In this document: piece after piece, positions 7,710-32,570 of the stretch
Numbering within the stretch: the first letter of the stretch is position 1
Layout: every line of letters starts with the position of its first letter
Origin: Escherichia coli
GTDB lineage: Bacteria; Pseudomonadota; Gammaproteobacteria; Enterobacterales; Enterobacteriaceae
DNA length: 64,000 bases
Strand: one strand, 5' to 3'
Assembly: GCF_003790525.1 (NCBI RefSeq)
Contig: NZ_CP033633.1
Translations under genes and position numbers: made by a program
The notes under the pieces: generated by a model
What the model was told of the DNA's origin: nothing
What the model saw: only the letters and a program-made list of their open reading frames with translations
Database searches by the model: none

Positions 7710-8003
7710 TCTGTTTACCTCTTTATCAGGGAGTTTAGTCTCCAGGATTCCCGGGGCGGTTCAGTTTTCACTCAGCTATGAACAACTGACCCGGTTTGCG
7801 GAACGACGCATCCGGGAATGCAATCTGGACAGCCAGGGCGCGATTTATCTCTGCGAGTCAGCCAAAGCCGGAGCCGTGCTGATCTTCTGGCATGAACTGG
7901 CCATAAATGGCTATACCTCAATGAATGCCATAAAAAGACAGGAGATCATTGACGCCGACCATCAGCGCCTCAGAAAGCTTATCTGGCCGGAGGATGACTG
8001 GAA

Positions 8004-8594
8004 ATGACCCAGAGCCGCCGACCGTCGCCACTGCAACGGAGAGTGCTGATTGTGCTGGCTGCCCTTGATGAAAAACGGCCAGGCCCCGTGCTGACGCGGG
8101 ACATAGAACGGGTGCTGGAGCGAAGCGGGGAAGCCCCGGTCTACGGGCCAAACCTGCGCGCCTCCTGCCGTCGTCTGGAGGATGCCGGATGGCTGCGTAC
8201 CCTGCGCGCTCCGAACCTGCAGCTGGCAGTGGAACTGACGGACGCCGGCCGGGCCGTGGCACAGCCTCTGCTGCTGGCAGAACAGGACCGCCTCCGGGCA
8301 GAACAGCGTGCGGCAGAAGTCGTCGTACTGCCGCTGGTCCCGGCAGCAGGTCTGCCCGCAGACGGCACTTCTGCCACTGATCTGGCGGTGGAGCTGAACG
8401 GCATGACGTATCAGGCCTGCCGCGAGGATTTTGTGGTACGTCTCGACGGCAGCACCTGTCTGCAGTTATGGAATAAAGAAGGCAGGGTGGTACGGCGGGA
8501 GGGCGATCCGCTGGAAGTGGCGCAGTGGCTGCAGGCCTGTCACGATGCCGGAATGGAGGTTCGTGTACAGGTTAATGAAAGCGTCACCCCGTAA
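8004..8594 (+). CDS. hypothetical high-GC protein, possible winged-helix DNA-binding N-terminus
   Basis: 196-aa ORF; start overlaps stop (ATGA) of an upstream gene remnant at 7767-8006 that is cut by IS629. Confidence 0.45.
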   Translation: MTQSRRPSPLQRRVLIVLAALDEKRPGPVLTRDIERVLERSGEAPVYGPNLRASCRRLEDAGWLRTLRAPNLQLAVELTDAGRAVAQPLLLAEQDRLRAEQRAAEVVVLPLVPAAGLPADGTSATDLAVELNGMTYQACREDFVVRLDGSTCLQLWNKEGRVVRREGDPLEVAQWLQACHDAGMEVRVQVNESVTP

Positions 8595-22195: not shown

Positions 22196-22376
22196 TTTTA
22201 CACCTTGTTATTTTTGATAGTAAATTTACATATCAAAATAAATCATAAAATCGCTTTTTTTAGTGATAAAAACCTCAAAAACAAAAACAATTAGTGATCA
22301 ACATCTCATAAGTAGTACATTTATCAACCGTTCCATTAATGTTTCATTCTATCGCGAATTAGGTAATGACTCCAAC

Positions 22377-22880
22377 TTATTGATAGTGTTTTATGTTCAG
22401 ATAATGCCCGATGACTTTGTCATGCAGCTCCACCGATTTTGAGAACGACAGCGACTTCCGTCCCAGCCGTGCCAGGTGCTGCCTCAGATTCAGGTTATGC
22501 CGCTCAATTCGCTGCGTATATCGCTTGCTGATTACGTGCAGCTTTCCCTTCAGGCGGGATTCATACAGCGGCCAGCCATCCGTCATCCATATCACCACGT
22601 CAAAGGGTGACAGCAGGCTCATAAGACGCCCCAGCGTCGCCATCGTGCGTTCACCGAATACGTGCGCAACAACCGTCTTCCGGAGCCTGTCATACGCGTA
22701 AAACAGCCAGCGCTGGCGCGATTTAGCCCCGACATAGCTCCACTGTTCGTCCATTTCCGCGCAGACGATGACGTCACTGCCCGGCTGTATGCGCGAGGTT
22801 ACCGACTGCGGCCTGAGTTTTTTAAGTGACGTAAAATCGTGTTGAGGACAACGCCCATAATGCGGGCTGTTGCCCGGCAT
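22377..22880 (-). CDS. insB: IS1 InsB
   Basis: Near-identical to 20359-20862. Confidence 0.85.
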
Positions 22881-24078: not shown

Positions 24079-25560
24079 TCATACGGGAGATGGCGGTTCC
24101 CAGCGTTTATCCTGCTCCGGCGGAGGCAGTGATGCGTCATCGTTGCTGTTCGCCGCGATATAATCGCGGTAGTAGCGTTCACTTCCTTCCCGGTGATGAT
24201 CCACATCCGGTCGTGTAATCCTGTAGTCTTCGTGACCGGTACGGCCTGTCACATTATGCCAGGCAACCATTTCAGCAAAGACCTGGTTAAATTGTTTGTC
24301 GTTTCCTTCTGGTTCAAAGCCCATTCTGGGATCACGCTCAAACAATACAGGTGCAATCAAATCCAGTTTATCTGCCAGCGCATTGCGGTCATGGTGATTA
24401 CGGAAAACAACCCTGTCACCATAATCCGTACAGACAAACTCTCCCGTCCGACGGTCACGGAAACGAACACTCCCGTTCTTCTGCAAACGGGCCTCGAGAT
24501 CACCGGTATTACCGTATACCGGCGTTCCGCCCGGTTCACAAAGCACGACACAGCGGTCTGTTGTTGTTGTGCGTGACTTGTCTTTACGGCGATCGCGATA
24601 ATCCCAGCCTCTCAACTGCGATACAGCAGCCCTGTCTCCCTGAGCAGCCTGAATTTCGACCCACTGACGGTAAGAGGGTGGATACCACTTCCCGTCAGCA
24701 ATAAGTTTCTGTCGCTCATCCCTGATGTCTTCTTTCAGCCTGATCAACGCCTGCATTCGCTGAACTTCTGCAATGTGATAATGCAGCTTACGTAATGCCG
24801 GATCATCGTACTGCGCACGAATGTGTGACTTCCGCAGACGGCATGCCTGATGAATTTCCCGACAACGTTCCCCATTACGCAGATCTGGTTTACGCCATTG
24901 TTCACGCCATGCCAGATAGCGGGCACGCAGGTCAGCACGGGCCTCAGCTCTGGCTTCACGTCGCTGCCGGCGCAGCATTGGGTCACGTTTACTGCTGACC
25001 CCGTACCTGTCACTGACAGCCAGCTCCGGGTTATAGCGACTTTCAGGTTGCACCCTGTCAAACAAATCTGCTGGGGCACTCACAAAAGGTCCGGCCTGTG
25101 GCTCTGCACGCCCCAGAGTCAGATCAGGATGAATGCTGCTGGCCTTCACCGGCGTTTGCTCATGATTAAAGGCATCAACGACAACAAGCCCGTGATGTTG
25201 TTTCTGTAGCATCAGTCCCTGTTGTGCAAACAGCTCATGACAACGCTGCCAGGTAAACTCACCCTGTGTGATCATTTCTTCAATCTGAGGGCTACAATGG
25301 CTGATGCTGTATCCCCACAGACTTTCTTTATCAGAAAACAGTTCGCGTTTGATATCCCCCTGCGGCCCCGTGCCTGTACGCATACGGTGCCATTCTTTAT
25401 CGGTCGCAGGACAGCTCTCCATACGACGACCACGGAAGCGTTCTGTTGGCGTAACCTGGCGGAAAATATCTGTTGGTACAGGCTGCCAGCCACCATCGAG
25501 TTGATTCACATTGTCGAGCGTCAGCAGTGACCATACGGTGTCAGCACGAACGGGAGTCTG
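24079..25560 (-). pseudogene. relaxase fragment: paralogue of the C-terminal ~490 aa of the NikB-like relaxase at 53701-56403; nuclease domain missing
   Basis: Long collinear similarity (QTPVRADxxWxLLTLxN...WHRMRTGxGPQGxIKRExFSDKESLWGY...) to the 900-aa relaxase but lacking the HxH relaxase motifs. Confidence 0.65.
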
Positions 25561-25599
25561 GTTATGATATTTTTCGGATCCCGGTGAAAAAAGAGAGAA

Positions 25600-25720
25600 A
25601 CATGCAGATACCATGCATATCCATATGTTTGGCATCTGCATATGACAGGCATACGCATATCTCACACATCTGCATATCTATAACATATACATATGTATCA
25701 CATCTGCATATACTAAACAT
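25600..25720. repeat. array of ~6 imperfect direct repeats with 17-bp periodicity (ATCTGCATAT-N7)
   Basis: GCATAT cores at 25615, 25638, 25655, 25672, (25689 variant), 25706. Confidence 0.5.
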
Positions 25721-25750: not shown

Positions 25751-25981
25751 ATGAGAACCGTATCTATTTTCAAAAATGGCAATAACCGCGCGATCCGTCT
25801 GCCCCGCGATCTGGATTTTGAGGGGGTGAGTGAGCTGGAGATTGTACGGGAAGGGGACAGAATCATTCTGCGTCCCCTCCGCCCGAGCTGGAGCTCATTC
25901 CTGGAGCTAGAAAAGGCCGATCCGGGCTTTATGACGGAACGCGAGGACGTTGTCTGCGACGAAGGACGATTTAACCTGTGA
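25751..25981 (+). CDS. vapB: VapB/VagC-type antitoxin (AbrB/SpoVT fold)
   Basis: 76-aa ORF MRTVSIFKNGNNRAIRLPRDL...; overlaps downstream PIN toxin. Confidence 0.8.
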   Translation: MRTVSIFKNGNNRAIRLPRDLDFEGVSELEIVREGDRIILRPLRPSWSSFLELEKADPGFMTEREDVVCDEGRFNL

Positions 25982-26394
25982 ACAAGATCTATATGCTCGA
26001 CACGAACATCTGCTCGTTCATCATGCGCGAGCAGCCTGAAGCAGTGCTTAAGAATCTGGAGCAGGCGGTGCTGCGCGGTCACCGTATAGTGGTCTCGGCC
26101 ATCACCTACTCCGAGATGCGCTTCGGCGCCACCGGTCCAAAGGCATCGCCACGCCACGTGCAGCTGGTTGACGCGTTCTGCGCCCGTCTCGATGCCATCC
26201 TGCCCTGGGATCGCGCTGCGGTGGATGCAACCACGGAGGTTAAGGTGGCGCTGCGCCTCGCCGGCACGCCGATCGGTCCGAACGACACGGCGATCGCCGG
26301 GCACGCCATCGCCACCGGGGCAATACTGGTGACGAATAATGTGAGAGAGTTTGAGCGGGTGCCTGGACTGGTACTGGAAGACTGGGCAGGATAA
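25978..26394 (+). CDS. vapC: VapC/VagD PIN-domain toxin
   Basis: 138-aa ORF MLDTNICSF... with acidic PIN residues; hairpin terminator at 26402-26425. Confidence 0.85.
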   Translation: MNKIYMLDTNICSFIMREQPEAVLKNLEQAVLRGHRIVVSAITYSEMRFGATGPKASPRHVQLVDAFCARLDAILPWDRAAVDATTEVKVALRLAGTPIGPNDTAIAGHAIATGAILVTNNVREFERVPGLVLEDWAG

Positions 26395-26955
26395 AGGAGT
26401 AAGGCCGCCCCCGACGGCCTTACCACTATTTTGCGATGTCAGTCGTATTCATTTTCAGCGTTAAAAAAGGGCTCTATACGAATACGTGTATCAGCGTGAG
26501 TAAGTTTCGGCGGCCTGATAAATCCACTATTTCCCAGCTGGACAGCCAGTTGCCACATGGCATCACTACGGGGAATGCTACGATAATTCCTCTCTGTGAG
26601 GAAAGCGGCATAATCCTGATGCCCGAACGTCATGAGCACCTGTCTGATGAACTTGTGTGACCCACCGTCATTTTTAAGACATTGCATCAGCAGTGCCTGC
26701 TTCTGCCGGTCATCGGTTATTTTGGTGGAGAACCTTATCAGGGCTTGCTGGCTGAGAAGTGGTGCCTCAGAGAGCAGGGCTTCATCTTTTTCCCAGAGCC
26801 AGTTCAGGATACTGATACAGACTTCATCTGCAATCTTATCGCCATTCAGAATTAAACGAGTAATCCCCAGGTCAAACTGGTCATCAGCAAATAAAACAAG
26901 CTGAACCGCCCCGGGAATCCTGGAGACTAAACTCCCTGATAAAGAGGTAAACAGA

Positions 26956-27282
26956 ATGACTAAAAATACTCGTTTTTCCCCCGAAGTCCGTCAGAGGGCG
27001 ATTCGTATGGTTCTGGAAAGTCAGGGCGAATATGACTCACAGTGGGCGGCAATTTGTTCCATTGCCCCAAAGATTGGCTGTACACCGGAGACTCTGCGTG
27101 TCTGGGTACGCCAGCATGAGCGGGATACCGGAGGCGGTGATGGCGGGCTCACCACCGCTGAACGTCAGCGTCTGAAAGAGCTGGAACGTGAAAATCGTGA
27201 ACTGCGCCGCAGTAACGATATCCTTCGCCAGGCTTCCGCTTATTTTGCGAAGGCGGAGTTCGACCGCCTCTGGAAAAAGTGA
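26956..27282 (+). CDS. IS629 transposase OrfA
   Basis: Identical protein to 7383-7709. Confidence 0.85.
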
Positions 27283-28169
27283 TGCCACTGCTGGATAAGC
27301 TGCGTAAGCTGTACGGGGTCGGACCGGTATGCAGTGAACTACATATTGCCCCGTCAACGTATTACCACTGTCAGCAACAGCGACATCATCCTTATAAACG
27401 CAGTGCCCGTGCGCAGCGCGATGACTGGCTGAAGAAAGAGATACTGCGCGTATACGATGGGAATCATCAGGTATATGGTGTGCGTAAAGTCTGGCGTCAG
27501 TTGTTACGGGAAGGAATCAGGGTAGCCAGATGTACAGTGGCGCGCCTCATGGCGGTTATGGGACTTGCCGGTGTTCTCCGGGGTAAAAAGGTCCGCACTA
27601 CCGTCAGCCGGAAAGCCGTTGCCGCAGGCGACCGCGTAAACCGTCAGTTTGTGGCAGAACGTCCTGACCAGTTGTGGGTGGCTGATTTTACTTACGTCAG
27701 CACATGGCAGGGGGTCGTCTATGTGGCGTTCATCATTGATGTGTTTGCCGGATACATCGTGGGGTGGCGGGTCTCATCGTCTATGGAAACGACATTCGTG
27801 CTGGATGCTCTGGAGCAGGCGTTATGGGCCCGTCGACCGTCCGGCACAGTCCATCACAGTGATAAAGGTTCTCAGTATGTATCGCTGGCCTACACACAGC
27901 GGCTTAAGGAAGCCGGATTACTGGCATCAACAGGAAGTACTGGTGACTCGTATGACAACGCGATGGCGGAGAGCATCAATGGCCTTTACAAAGCGGAGGT
28001 AATACACCGTAAGAGCTGGAAAAACCGGACAGAAGTGGAGCTGGCCACACTCACGTGGGTGGACTGGTATAACAATCGACGATTGCTGGAAAGGCTGGGC
28101 CATATCCCACCGGCAGAAGCAGAAAAAGCTTATTATGCTTCCATCGGAAACGATGATCTGGCAGCCTGA
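27279..28169 (+). CDS. IS629 transposase OrfB
   Basis: Identical protein to 6496-7386. Confidence 0.85.
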
Positions 28170-28559
28170 GTTCACAGATAAAACACTCTCCAGGAAACCC
28201 GGGGCGGTTCAAACACCCTTTCTTCATCCATCCTGCGCGCTCCATCTGATAATGTTCTGACAGGTAAAAATCAAATTCTGTATGATTTTTGTGTTATCGA
28301 TTTATGATAATATCAGATATTTTTTCATTACTTATGATTAAAATCATATCTAATATGAATTTATGTGTATTGCTTAATTATCATATCACCTGCCCGTTTC
28401 CCGCCGCGCAGATCCGGTTTCCGGCTGAAGTGGATCCAGACCTGATTTGTTGCTGAGTATCGGTAAAAGTGCGGCTTATAAGCTATTCTGAAACATGGCA
28501 AGTGAATCTGGGCTGTATAATTCCGGCAAGTGTCATCTGTATTTAAAGGACGTGTGAGT

Positions 28560-29012
28560 ATGAAATTTATGGAATGTGCTGTCCGGGATGTGATTTATGG
28601 GACCAATGTCCGTCTTGTCAAACCGGTCAACATTTATGAATGTGAACTCGGGGACAATGTGTTTGTCGGCCCCTTCGTTGAGATACAGAAAGGCTGTGTC
28701 ATTGGTAGTGGAAGTCGGATACAGTCGCACACGTTTATTTGTGAGAACGTAACACTGGGGGAGAAGTGCTTCATTGGTCATAACGTGACGTTCGCCAACG
28801 ATCTGTTTCGTTCAGGAGCACCAGATCCGTCACCGGATAACTGGATCAGCATTACCCTGGGGGATTCGGTTACTGTTGGCAGTGGAGCCATTATTCTGTC
28901 TCCGTATATATGCAGCGGAGCTGTTATTGGTGCGGGTTCAGTTGTGGTAAAACCGATTGAGAACAAAGGCATTTATGCAGGAAACCCGGCAAGACTGCTC
29001 AGAATATTATGA
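28560..29012 (+). CDS. hexapeptide-repeat (left-handed beta-helix) acyl/acetyltransferase
   Basis: Repeated [LIV]G-x4 hexads (VFVGPF, CVIGSG, VTLGEK, CFIGHN, VTVGSG, AVIGAG); SD aagga upstream of ATG 28560. Confidence 0.7.
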   Translation: MKFMECAVRDVIYGTNVRLVKPVNIYECELGDNVFVGPFVEIQKGCVIGSGSRIQSHTFICENVTLGEKCFIGHNVTFANDLFRSGAPDPSPDNWISITLGDSVTVGSGAIILSPYICSGAVIGAGSVVVKPIENKGIYAGNPARLLRIL

Positions 29013-29018
29013 AAAAGA

Positions 29019-29045
29019 AAAGGGCCGTTACTGGCCCTTTTTATC
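29019..29045 (+). terminator. rho-independent terminator (GGGCC-N6-GGCCC + T-run)
   Basis: aaagggccgttactggcccttttta directly after the acetyltransferase stop. Confidence 0.5.
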
Positions 29046-29225
29046 AGAGGTAGGTCTGTGAATACGGCAGGTGTACAGAAATCGACTGCCGGGGATCGAT
29101 TTCCAGGGCCGCCCGGTATTCTGCGTCAGTGATATCACCTTTTTTCGGTAAATAACCGAGAGCATCGTTTCCCAGCCCTGACAGTATGCGTATTCTGGCG
29201 ATCCGGAAATCAAACAGGCTGTCCA

Positions 29226-29408
29226 TCATACCATGCTCCGGAAATGCGGGAGGAGTGGCCAGATAGGCAGGTTTGACCATTGTCCTAAAGTGCCTTCAGG
29301 AAGAGATAATCGGGAAGCGCCTTCACTGATCGAAAGTTGATTTTCAAGAACCGTTCTGACAGCTTCGGCTTTGAACTCTTTAGAGTAACGTTGGGTTTTT
29401 CTGCTCAT
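29226..29408 (-). pseudogene. IS3-family transposase OrfA N-terminal remnant
   Basis: MSRKTQRYSKEFKAEAVRTVLENQLSISEGASRLSLPEGTLGQW then frame lost. Confidence 0.5.
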
Positions 29409-30389
29409 TATTAGCTCCTTCTGATGCCATTCTATTTCAGGAAGGAGTGTCCGTTAAACCCAGGCTACCTCATAGTTCATTTTCTGTTGATGCGCTGAAG
29501 ATCATTTCATTCAAAATACTGACATCTTTCATAAAGACCTCCATTTTATGTCGGGGAAAAATAAAGCACAGATAAACCATATTTTCACATTTAATTTACA
29601 AATTAGTGGTATCAGTCACAAATAACTTACAGGTCCGGTAATATCGGTCTGTTAGTGATATTTACTGAAAATGATGGAAAGATATTGATAACGTGGTTGC
29701 CATAACCAATGCTTCAGGGAAGCCGATATGGTTAATGTCATTACAATCGTCGCCACAGTTGCCTGTGTATCCGGATATTTGAAATGGATCTTCCAGAAGC
29801 GGACTCGGGTAGTATCTTCATGGTTTGGCTTTCAGCAGATCTGTGACTCTGCTATTTATTGATGAATATGACCTTTACAATTCCAGTTATTGTTCTGATT
29901 GCAATAATCACTTCATCACAATAATCCACCATTTTTTGTGATTATCTGGCAATAATTTTCTTTTCTGCTCCAGAGATCCGAAAACTCCTGGTTCCGGATC
30001 CGCGGATCCTTCGCTGCCGCCCGCTGGTCCGCTTTCACAGGATGTGGTGTCCCGCTCCGCTGACATGACACTGTATGTTGTGTTTCTTCCCGTGTTCCCG
30101 AGCCAGTCATCAGCGGCAGAAAAGATCGCTTCGCTTATTCACTGATCCTGATTCACTTCCGGAAAATCCTGAATCCGATAAAAATCGGATCATAGAAAAA
30201 CAGTCATCCTGTAATTTATCATGGTTACTACATTGCAGGTTATTATTGTCATGATTACTTTTCAGGTCAGTTATTGATGGTGGTGTTAATAATAGCTGGA
30301 TAACAATATTCCGTTGCCGGAGGCATGTTATAGCGTAATACTGGTGTATACTTAATGGTGTACAGAGAGTATGTAAGATGAGGTGCATT

Positions 30390-30915
<526 letters not shown>

Positions 30916-31725
30916 ATGTCAGGCTCCGTTATACACAGCCAGTCTGCAGCCATGGTACCGGCAGTGTATTCTGCCGGACAGTCTGCACAACTTCCTGTTG
31001 CCATTGATTATCCGGCAGCTCTGGCACTCCGCCAGATGTCGATGGTTCATGATGAACTGCCGAAATATCTGCTGGCTCCCGAGGTGAGTGCCCTGCTTCA
31101 TTATGTCCCGGATCTGCGCCGCAAGATGCTGCTGGCCACTCTGTGGAACACCGGCGCGCGTATTAATGAAGCACTAGCGCTGACGCGGGGGGATTTTTCG
31201 CTCACGCCTCCGTATCCGTTTGTGCAGCTGGCCACTCTGAAGCAGCGGACAGAAAAAGCCGCCAGGAGGGCAGGAAGGATGCCCGCCGGTCAGCAGACTC
31301 ACCGTCTGGTTCCGCTCTCCGACGCCTGGTACGTCAGCCAGCTGCAGACGATGGTGGCCACACTGAAAATCCCCATGGAACGGCGTAATAAACGAACAGG
31401 CAGGACAGAGAAAGCGCGGATCTGGGAAGTGACGGACAGAACGGTCAGGACCTGGATTGGGGAGGCGGTTGCCGCCGCTGCTGCTGACGGTGTGACGTTC
31501 TCTGTTCCGGTCACACCACATACGTTCCGCCATTCCTATGCGATGCACATGCTGTATGCCGGTATACCGCTGAAAGTTCTGCAAAGCCTGATGGGACATA
31601 AGTCCATCAGTTCAACGGAAGTCTACACGAAGGTTTTTGCGCTGGATGTGGCTGCCCGGCACCGGGTGCAGTTTGCGATGCCTGAGTCCGATGCGGTCAC
31701 AATGCTGAAAAACAGACATGTATAA
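30916..31725 (+). CDS. resD: ResD tyrosine site-specific recombinase (multimer resolvase)
   Basis: 269-aa ORF directly after ccdB as in F; C-terminal HxxR...Y catalytic region (HTFRHSYAMHMLYAG...STEVYTKV). Confidence 0.8.
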   Translation: MSGSVIHSQSAAMVPAVYSAGQSAQLPVAIDYPAALALRQMSMVHDELPKYLLAPEVSALLHYVPDLRRKMLLATLWNTGARINEALALTRGDFSLTPPYPFVQLATLKQRTEKAARRAGRMPAGQQTHRLVPLSDAWYVSQLQTMVATLKIPMERRNKRTGRTEKARIWEVTDRTVRTWIGEAVAAAAADGVTFSVPVTPHTFRHSYAMHMLYAGIPLKVLQSLMGHKSISSTEVYTKVFALDVAARHRVQFAMPESDAVTMLKNRHV

Positions 31726-31862: not shown

Positions 31863-32138
31863 GTGGCTTCTGTTTCTATCAGCTGTCCCTCCTGTTCAGC
31901 TACTGACGGGGTGGTGCGTAACGGCAAAAGCACCGCCGGACATCAGCGCTATCTCTGCTCTCACTGCCGTAAAACATGGCAACTGCAGTTCACTTACACC
32001 GCTTCTCAACCCGGTACGCACCAGAAAATCATTGATATGGCCATGAATGGCGTTGGATGCCGGGCAACCGCCCGCATTATGGGCGTTGGCCTCAACACGA
32101 TTTTCCGCCATTTAAAAAACTCAGGCCGCAGTCGGTAA
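31863..32138 (+). CDS. insA: IS1 InsA
   Basis: Near-identical to other insA copies. Confidence 0.9.
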
Positions 32139-32560
32139 CCTCGCGCATACAGCCGGGCAGTGACGTCATCGTCTGTGCGGAAATGGACGAACAGTGGGGC
32201 TATGTCGGGGCTAAATCGCGCCAGCGCTGGCTGTTTTACGCGTATGACAGGCTCCGGAAGACGGTTGTTGCGCACGTATTCGGTGAACGCACGATGGCGA
32301 CGCTGGGGCGTCTTATGAGCCTGCTGTCACCCTTTGACGTGGTGATATGGATGACGGATGGCTGGCCGCTGTATGAATCCCGCCTGAAGGGAAAGCTGCA
32401 CGTAATCAGCAAGCGATATACGCAGCGAATTGAGCGGCATAACCTGAATCTGAGGCAGCACCTGGCACGGCTGGGACGGAAGTCGCTGTCGTTCTCAAAA
32501 TCGGTGGAGCTGCATGACAAAGTCATCGGGCATTATCTGAACATAAAACACTATCAATAA
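32057..32560 (+). CDS. insB: IS1 InsB
   Basis: Near-identical to other insB copies. Confidence 0.85.
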
Positions 32561-32570
32561 GTTGGAGTCA

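Follow-up and report, generated by a model that had tools for sequence, protein, structure and literature searches.

A plasmid acyltransferase gene of Escherichia coli as a probable relic of a mobile amino-sugar cassette

Within a stretch of 64,000 nucleotides of Escherichia coli DNA (contig NZ_CP033633.1 of assembly GCF_003790525.1; the whole stretch is termed the window, and coordinates are those of the window unless a locus or another record is named), an intact gene at 28560-29012 on the plus strand encodes a 150-residue acyltransferase of the left-handed beta-helix, or hexapeptide-repeat, type. We propose that this gene is the sixth member of a mobile amino-sugar cassette, that its product is an enzyme of the QdtC/FdtD/WlbB type, and that it has been left here as a relic, a reading that sequence comparison makes moderately probable. 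The most likely reaction is the N-acetylation of a kanosamine-type amino sugar, where we infer both the substrate and the preference for N- rather than O-acetylation. The original prediction, made from the letters of the window alone, regarded the gene as an orphan. It is indeed solitary here, but only through an insertion sequence (IS) deletion of five adjoining amino-sugar genes, and among its closest relatives the gene occupies the sixth place in a cassette rather than forming a primary stand-alone unit. The acyltransferase is an uncharacterised enzyme of known kind and a common plasmid relic, and it is not a known antibiotic-resistance gene.

Results

The deletion is evident from comparison with the locus around the same gene on the IncF plasmid NZ_CP027311.1 (locus L002), which serves as the intact reference and in which the acyltransferase gene is 98% identical at the DNA level. 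Window positions 28211-29280 are collinear with L002 8001-9071 (98.0% identity) and positions 29473-29990 with L002 13632-14149 (99.0%), while L002 9072-13631, representing 4.56 kb of an operon, is missing from the window and a 192-bp IS remnant stands in its place. On the left of the remnant is the 3' stump of a gene for a flavin-containing monooxygenase (29044-29280, minus strand), made up of the last 78 codons and the stop of the coding sequence at L002 8835-10367. On its right is the 5' stump of an NtdA/KabA-like aminotransferase gene (29473-29544, minus strand), consisting of its first 24 codons, MEVFMKDVSILNEMIFSASTENEL, which align to L002 and of which 24 of 24 residues are identical on the sister plasmid NZ_CP029742.1 (tblastn). 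These stumps of two reading frames counter the reading of L002 9072-13631 as an insertion in NZ_CP027311.1, and they also qualify the earlier statement that the gene has no partner biosynthetic genes, which holds for intact genes but not for the remains of these two partners. The phosphatase, dehydrogenase and SemiSWEET genes are absent from the window. As expected for a C-terminal piece, the monooxygenase stump has no Pfam match, and a 61-residue open reading frame (ORF) inside it is annotated in RefSeq as 'hypothetical protein' WP_032353630.1 (119122-119307 of the sister-plasmid record). The adjacent 29545-29990 (minus strand, 36% GC) aligns to the upstream, or promoter, region of the five-gene operon on L002 and would now drive nothing beyond the 24-codon aminotransferase stump. 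The leader, ribosome-binding site and downstream hairpin of the acyltransferase gene are untouched by the deletion.

The remnant itself (29281-29472, minus strand) is the left end of a second IS3-family element, the first being the IS629-like element on the other side of the acyltransferase gene. It was identified by its HTH_Tnp_1 domain (E 1.5e-12), its junctions and its RefSeq annotation ('transposase, incomplete'), and it comprises the terminal repeat and the first ~44 codons of orfA. The same 192-bp sequence is found in 3060 of 5426 complete E. coli genomes. As a possible precursor of the deletion, which would have an IS still complete at the junction with the aminotransferase gene, we considered CP055725.1 and rejected it because its IS66 and IS3 insertions are at other sites. 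At 99.9% identity, the 931-bp region as a whole recurs on a group of E. coli plasmids from chicken and other sources, and many IncF plasmids have it at 95-98%.

The nature of the lost operon is apparent from L002, where the acyltransferase gene converges on five genes of the opposite strand that encode an aminotransferase, a phosphatase, a dehydrogenase, a SemiSWEET transporter and a flavin monooxygenase, with the monooxygenase stop located ~30 bp from that of the acyltransferase. By family the five are a DegT-family aminotransferase, HAD-IIB hydrolase, Gfo/Idh/MocA oxidoreductase, SemiSWEET and FAD (flavin adenine dinucleotide)-dependent oxidoreductase. When searched by sequence against all solved structures, the aminotransferase is closest to KabA (7kz3, 1.6e-90) and NtdA (4k2b, 3.9e-88), followed by WbpE (6e-50), and the phosphatase is closest to NtdB (3gyg, 7e-47), with the next match at 1e-6. 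The Gfo/Idh/MocA protein best matches sugar dehydrogenases at 1e-15 to 1e-20, of which the best named one is levoglucosan dehydrogenase, an enzyme that oxidizes C3; there is no NtdC entry among its solved-structure matches. The FAD protein is a class B flavin-containing monooxygenase (FMO) whose best solved relative is a polyketide synthase (PKS)-associated domain (8odw, 6e-63), followed by ancestral FMOs. The SemiSWEET (L002 10364-10633), which is the fourth gene of this NtdABC-like operon, is 100% identical to the crystallised E. coli SemiSWEET (4x5m/4x5n; next 4qnc, 1.1e-18), and its position in the operon suggests that its substrate is a kanosamine-type amino sugar. The pathway to kanosamine (3-amino-3-deoxy-D-glucose) by way of NtdA, NtdB and NtdC was reportedly worked out in Bacillus subtilis by Vetter and co-workers in 2013 (a study cited in PMC5320562). 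NtdABC and KabABC make kanosamine from glucose-6-phosphate, and the NtdABC route runs through sugar phosphates and the free sugar.

To what extent the acyltransferase belongs with these genes is seen from their distribution. When one genome per species was scanned, 373 had relatives of the acyltransferase, and the partner searches used the 80 best loci. Among the 80, the full operon adjoins the acyltransferase gene in Pectobacterium brasiliense (91% identical, with partners at 85-92%) and in two E. coli-like contigs. In Cedecea sulfonylureivorans the monooxygenase lies at the contig edge (76% and 63%), and monooxygenase stumps persist in Edwardsiella ictaluri and an Escherichia species. The locus in E. 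ictaluri ATCC 33202 (L014 ~1375-2166) has, of the cassette, only an intact acyltransferase gene (84%) and, after it, a monooxygenase fragment of 105 residues (67%), an independent case of the same decay in another genus. A search starting from the monooxygenase found the six genes in the same order in Pantoea ananatis (monooxygenase 63% identical), Erwinia amylovora (76%) and Plesiomonas shigelloides (86%), where the 150-residue gene is again convergent ~30 bp away and the chromosomal surroundings are unrelated. In a neighbour-joining tree of the 150 residues, built with no bootstrap, all of the cassette-linked acyltransferases fall in one clade in which stand-alone copies are interleaved, and this fits repeated loss of the operon. 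The six genes thus travel as one unit of which the acyltransferase is a conserved member despite its separate transcription. The monooxygenase family, like that of the acyltransferase, also includes stand-alone chromosomal members, such as that of Yersinia canariae (locus L094 8001-9533; 54% identical), which is alone between feoABC and tex.

The 150-residue left-handed beta-helix transferase itself was correctly recognised at the outset. The one long plus-strand frame in the ORF list, 28530-29012, opens with GTG; the true start is the ATG at 28560, and both this start and the exact length of 150 residues are found in 25 of 25 aligned homologues. The stop codon is at 29010-29012. The protein is identical to RefSeq WP_032353631.1, and its exact sequence is present under generic names on at least 1000 public contigs, with 7708 homologues at E<=1e-5. 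Pfam Hexapep (PF00132) matches three stretches of it with 60 bits against a cut-off of 27 (E 1.3e-16), which places the protein in the hexapeptide-repeat superfamily. An AlphaFold2 (AF2) model built with 25 close homologues has regular short strands every ~6 residues, as in a left-handed parallel beta-helix; its overall predicted local distance difference test (pLDDT) value is only 67, with residues 11-70 confident (86-93) and residues 118-150 poor (mean 67). Every Foldseek match of this model in the PDB is a beta-helix enzyme at a probability of 1.0, and the best structural overlap is with WlbB (TM-score 0.77, root mean square deviation 2.0 A). As a sub-classifier Foldseek was of no use, as GlmU, LpxD, YrdA and WlbB are returned at near-equal E-values. 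Left-handed beta-helix acyltransferases are trimers and use acetyl-CoA.

Assignment to a sub-class comes instead from the family profile. Searched against solved structures, it finds QdtC (9.9e-14) and FdtD (4.9e-13; collinear over residues 8-146), followed by a Helicobacter pullorum N-acetyltransferase (7e-12), WlbB (1e-11) and VioB (1.5e-11). The invariant segment from H74 through N80 and D81 (HNVTFAND) has as its counterpart in FdtD and the H. pullorum enzyme the sequence PNVTFTND, and the Asn of the TND segment is presumably that which contacts the sugar amine in WlbB and QdtC. QdtC, FdtD, WlbB and the H. pullorum enzyme N-acetylate a 3-amino group, and VioB the 4-amino group. The 3-amino position is the one that is aminated in kanosamine, and hence we propose a kanosamine-type substrate for the acyltransferase.

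Streptogramin and chloramphenicol acetyltransferases have the same fold, and the original prediction had drawn attention to antibiotic acetyltransferases of this kind. An enzyme of the Vat/CatB type, acting on xenobiotics and giving resistance to streptogramin A or chloramphenicol, would suit a stand-alone plasmid gene amid IS elements and the weak matches to the Vat and CatB models and to CatB8, yet we consider it very improbable. No NCBIfam model reaches its cut-off with the acyltransferase, and the scores for Vat_ABCDEFH (31.8 bits against 300), CatB (28.4 against 350) and VatA, VatC and VatI (26-31 against 415-450) are far below theirs and are confined to residues ~98-148. The E-value of CatB8 is 3e-4 with the single sequence and improves to 5e-7 with the profile, and more than 45 other structures rank ahead of it. 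Moreover, the conserved partners are sugar-pathway genes, and AMRFinderPlus results for the sister plasmid, as distributed by PLSDB, have no flag for the gene. The profile sub-classification that had been suggested therefore has amino-sugar N-acetyltransferases as the nearest solved relatives, not Vat or CatB.

Polysaccharide or O-antigen modification by an enzyme of the WbbJ, WcaF or NeuD type is to us scarcely credible. It would be hinted at by weak NCBIfam matches to NeuD/PglB/VioB (TIGR03570, 62.2 bits), WbbJ (43 bits) and WcaF (41 bits), all of which are far below the respective cut-offs of 160.8, 243 and 192. The first of these is limited to the final ~50 of the 202 positions of its model, and the acyltransferase is without the N-terminal nucleotide-sugar-binding domain of that family. 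There is no glycosyltransferase, nucleotide-sugar synthesis or polymer-export gene in the neighbourhoods whose genes were listed or among the recurrent neighbour families of the other loci. The original prediction named, as what would refute it, closest homologues that are all embedded in polysaccharide clusters. Literally this is not the case, as the partners represent a kanosamine-type small-molecule pathway, and ~65 more distant homologues are truly stand-alone genes of the chromosome.

A number of observations weigh against the reading proposed here. In some 65 of the 80 loci (58-75% identical) none of the partners lies within 10 kb of the gene. It has a fixed site between psiE/malG and yjbH/pgi in Klebsiella, Raoultella, Citrobacter and Kluyvera, and in Brenneria, Photobacterium damselae and Providencia it is alone among unrelated housekeeping genes. 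Such widespread stand-alone copies indicate that the function of the family does not depend on the cassette. The gene is on the strand opposite to the operon, so there is no argument from co-transcription, and a consensus promoter scan of its upstream region yields two promoter-like sites compared with 3.2 +/- 1.9 in shuffled sequences, hence no excess. The O-acetyltransferases LacA and Maa follow in the profile search at 1e-9, only ~14 bits weaker. There is no nucleotidyltransferase in or next to the cassette in the inspected loci, and the substrate would therefore differ from those of the characterised relatives. Finally, no biochemical data on any member of the family were found in the literature.

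The stand-alone copies also bear on what the enzyme is for. Prevalence was counted in the 5426 complete genomes, with a gene taken as intact if at least 80% of it is present. The acyltransferase gene is intact in 393 genomes (354 places on plasmids and 91 on chromosomes) versus 66 for the aminotransferase and 67 for the full monooxygenase, and hence at least 83% of carriers have it as an orphan; any fragment of the monooxygenase is found in 538 genomes. On 59 plasmids the 6.1-kb locus is at least 80% complete. The decay forms on plasmids include many independent ones, with the acyltransferase only, with the monooxygenase and SemiSWEET only, or with IS66 or IS3 insertions, and orphans are found in contexts as independent as a tRNA-Phe island and a plasmid with the microcin B17 operon. 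The full-length 150-codon frame is kept in 19 of 19 copies examined, including old orphans. For distant pairs, orphans among them, the ratio of nonsynonymous to synonymous substitution (dN/dS) measured against the window copy is 0.05-0.17. Such low values at depth indicate purifying selection on the family whether the cassette is present or not. Close E. coli alleles have a dN/dS of 0.4-0.8, from only 7-10 changed codons and so uninformative on recent selection, and the five differences of the window copy from the commonest allele are all at variable columns.

One interpretation of these data, which would refine rather than replace the cassette assignment, is self-protection or detoxification, in which a toxic amino sugar, be it kanosamine or the product of the cassette, is inactivated by acetylation of its amine; the cassette copy would protect the producer, and orphan copies and stand-alone chromosomal homologues would protect non-producers. 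We regard this as possible, on the unlikely side, and of the readings considered it comes nearest to the resistance idea of the original prediction. It would agree with a transcription unit of its own on the strand opposite to the biosynthetic operon, with the spread of the single gene beyond the cassette, with its independent orphan contexts, and with purifying selection on long-standing orphans (dN/dS 0.05-0.13). Kanosamine-6-phosphate, an obligatory intermediate of the NtdABC route, is an inhibitor of glucosamine-6-phosphate synthase. The six-fold excess over the biosynthetic genes fits selection for the acyltransferase gene alone; however, it may equally stem from the shortness of the gene (453 bp), from its location at one end of the cassette and from the clonal spread of a few plasmid lineages. 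In addition, the decay forms that keep the monooxygenase and SemiSWEET without the acyltransferase are also common in plasmids, and the close-allele ratios do not speak to the matter. Strict conservation within the cassette fits tailoring and self-protection alike. As between these two, the separate opposite-strand unit and the many conserved stand-alone homologues would tip slightly towards protection. In view of the stand-alone homologues, the enzyme may protect against an amino-sugar antimetabolite by detoxifying it.

A parallel for protection is at hand in colicins. On the sister plasmid the colicin B immunity gene is intact and the colicin gene next to it has been truncated by IS1; a bacteriocin immunity gene there is truncated as well (locus L096 29760-30967 and 8310-8483). 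By analogy, the same pattern, in which production genes are lost and small protective genes are kept, may apply to the acyltransferase.

At the other extreme, the gene could be a functionless relic that is intact only because the deletion is recent. The partners that would produce its substrate are gone, its promoter is unproven, the close plasmid alleles have the higher dN/dS values, and the locus is often hit by IS insertion or deletion across many plasmids. Against this are the full-length frames of all copies examined, the avoidance of invariant columns by the differences in the window copy, the intact leader, ribosome-binding site and terminator, and the persistence of the gene in 393 complete genomes, and we consider loss of function improbable.

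The upstream region of the acyltransferase gene (28232-28559, plus strand) was analysed by composition, inverted repeats, promoter scan and cross-genus comparison. It was said to be AT-rich and to contain the gene's own promoter. The first part is confirmed, with 38% GC over the 349 bp at 28211-28559 and 24% in the core (28260-28400) compared with 51.5% for the whole window; the second finds no backing in the promoter scan, and a promoter within 28232-28559 is at best putative. A candidate -10 element (28516-28521) is a perfect TATAAT with a poor -35, and a ribosome-binding site, AAGGA, is at 28546-28550, 9 nt before the ATG. Between genera only the last ~35 nt before the ATG are conserved, and the sequence further upstream diverges. 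In Pectobacterium (locus L012 ~650-745), Cedecea (L011) and Plesiomonas (L095) a ~90-bp piece that is ~90% identical to an IS1 end lies ~50 bp before the acyltransferase start, which indicates that there are IS scars on the upstream side in these three genera too and that the promoter is not conserved. IS1 copies in the window itself terminate at 20789-20880, 22356-22450 and 32487-32570. The AT-rich core also has several short palindromes on TATGAT/ATCATA, for example 28339-28349 with 28353-28363, and a further pair, 28303-28311 with 28377-28385. The TATGAT/ATCATA palindromes could represent an operator in what is a divergent intergenic region in the intact locus. The divergent gene, for an 85-residue hypothetical protein, is at 7764-8021 on the minus strand of L002; in the window it has been severed by the IS629-like element, and only its first seven codons (MDEERVF) remain at 28211-28231 (minus strand), where collinearity with L002 from 8001 begins. 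The two divergent hypothetical proteins of the intact locus have no Pfam or NCBIfam matches. An Rfam scan of 26800-30500 (E<=1) has as its sole match the IS frameshift pseudoknot described below, and thus no riboswitch or small RNA.

Downstream, the clean hairpin terminator of the original prediction is well supported as a hairpin. Located at 29017-29042, it begins five bases past the acyltransferase stop and sits between that stop and the convergent stop of the monooxygenase stump (29044-29046). It is GC-rich, with a 10-pair stem of -16 kcal/mol (z = -2.7 versus shuffled sequences) and an A-run and a T-run on its flanks, as expected of an intrinsic terminator, and a terminator scan reports it on the minus strand. 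Its position is kept, with differing stem sequences, in Pectobacterium, Plesiomonas, Cedecea and Pantoea. We predict that it is a bidirectional intrinsic terminator shared by the convergent acyltransferase and monooxygenase genes, and it could serve both because the A-run and T-run flank it.

The IS flanks on either side of the gene were also correctly recognised. On the left is a 1310-bp IS629/IS1203-like element of the IS3 family (26901-28210, plus strand), with orfA at 26956-27282, orfB at 27279-28169, ends TGAACCGCCCCGGG.../...CCCGGGGCGGTTCA and an ALIL frameshift pseudoknot at 27237-27353 (116 bits). It is ~95% identical to copies annotated as 'IS3-like element IS1203 family' (IS629 group). 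Its flanking triplets are AGC on the left (26898-26900) and AAC on the right (28211-28213), and so there is no target duplication in the window; on the sister plasmid (locus L001 6729-6790) the IS has AAC on both sides, as a target duplication, and two hypothetical genes on its left, where the divergent 85-residue gene also lies. Together with the different left flank, the AGC/AAC pair indicates that a further, later IS-associated rearrangement joined the left flank of the window to the IS. That flank includes 26436-26900 and, at 25751-26394 (plus strand), a VapB/VapC-like toxin-antitoxin pair, judged as such from the translations. Further out, a 528-residue ORF with a TraI-like middle domain is at 24079-25665 (minus strand), and to the right of the relic are ccdA-ccdB and a site-specific integrase, named from the sister-plasmid annotation, followed by an IS1 copy (30378-31725 and 31863-32560, plus strand).

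Discussion

We envisage the following. Together the five operon genes would account for the synthesis, modification and export of a kanosamine-type 3-amino sugar, and the acyltransferase would transfer acetyl from acetyl-CoA to the 3-amino group of kanosamine, its phosphate or its N-oxygenated form. Here 4.56 kb of that operon has been lost to an IS3-family element together with an adjoining deletion, the other flank has been cut by the IS629-like element, and what survives is the acyltransferase gene with its leader and the shared terminator, a relic without an endogenous substrate.

A bolder proposal is that the enzyme is the self-protection gene of an uncharacterised, plasmid-borne antimetabolite system of the Enterobacterales that combines kanosamine synthesis, N-oxygenation by the FMO and export by SemiSWEET, and this must be viewed as speculative and rather unlikely. 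If true, the orphans and the hundreds of chromosomal homologues would represent a new class of resistance to 3-amino-sugar antibiotics, that of left-handed beta-helix kanosamine N-acetyltransferases, and the orphan copies would have been retained as 'immunity without production'.

For the window itself the finding is of minor importance, since the gene already bears a generic annotation and is here a relic left by IS activity. What it offers is a lead to a six-gene cassette that is conserved on virulence or colicin plasmids of E. coli and Salmonella and in plant-associated Enterobacterales, and the intact cassette elsewhere is a more interesting object than the relic. The cassette brings together a kanosamine pathway of the Bacillus type, a flavin monooxygenase, the E. 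coli SemiSWEET of known crystal structure and an acetyltransferase, and we found no study of its product. Papers on plasmids of E. coli and Salmonella name such genes ntdABC or ntdA from annotation only, and literature searches for kanosamine with Enterobacterales, SemiSWEET, N-acetylkanosamine and FMO gave only annotation-level mentions, with no functional study of the cassette. If its product is an amino-sugar antimetabolite, the cassette would give enterobacterial plasmids a new means of competition, with the acetyltransferase as the last tailoring step or the immunity gene, and the physiological substrate of EcSemiSWEET, left open by its crystallographers, would become testable.

The acyltransferase can be compared with four known systems. 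It shares with the Vat and CatB enzymes their fold and frequent occurrence as stand-alone genes on mobile DNA, but it misses their curated scores by about ten-fold, its 150 residues compare with models of 201-219 positions, and its gene partners differ. Orphan colicin immunity genes are likewise small genes with their own transcription units that persist after the IS-mediated loss of production genes, the difference being that protection by the acyltransferase is only hypothetical. QdtC, FdtD (WxcM-like), WlbB and the H. pullorum enzyme are its best full-length solved relatives and share the motif NVTF(T/A)ND, yet identity is only ~22-30% and the acyltransferase is shorter and has no extra domain. 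In addition, these known enzymes act on dTDP- or UDP-linked sugars and are encoded in O-antigen or S-layer glycan loci, whereas the acyltransferase gene is found beside a sugar-phosphate pathway. We know of no SemiSWEET, flavin monooxygenase or hexapeptide acetyltransferase in the ntd and kab operons of Bacillus, and the three cassette genes that would correspond to those of NtdABC (B. subtilis) and KabABC (Bacillus cereus group) have been deleted in the window. In close relatives, however, an NtdA-type aminotransferase and an NtdB-type phosphatase adjoin the acyltransferase, and the aminotransferase, phosphatase and dehydrogenase genes of the intact cassette follow one another in the same A-B-C order as in these Bacillus operons.

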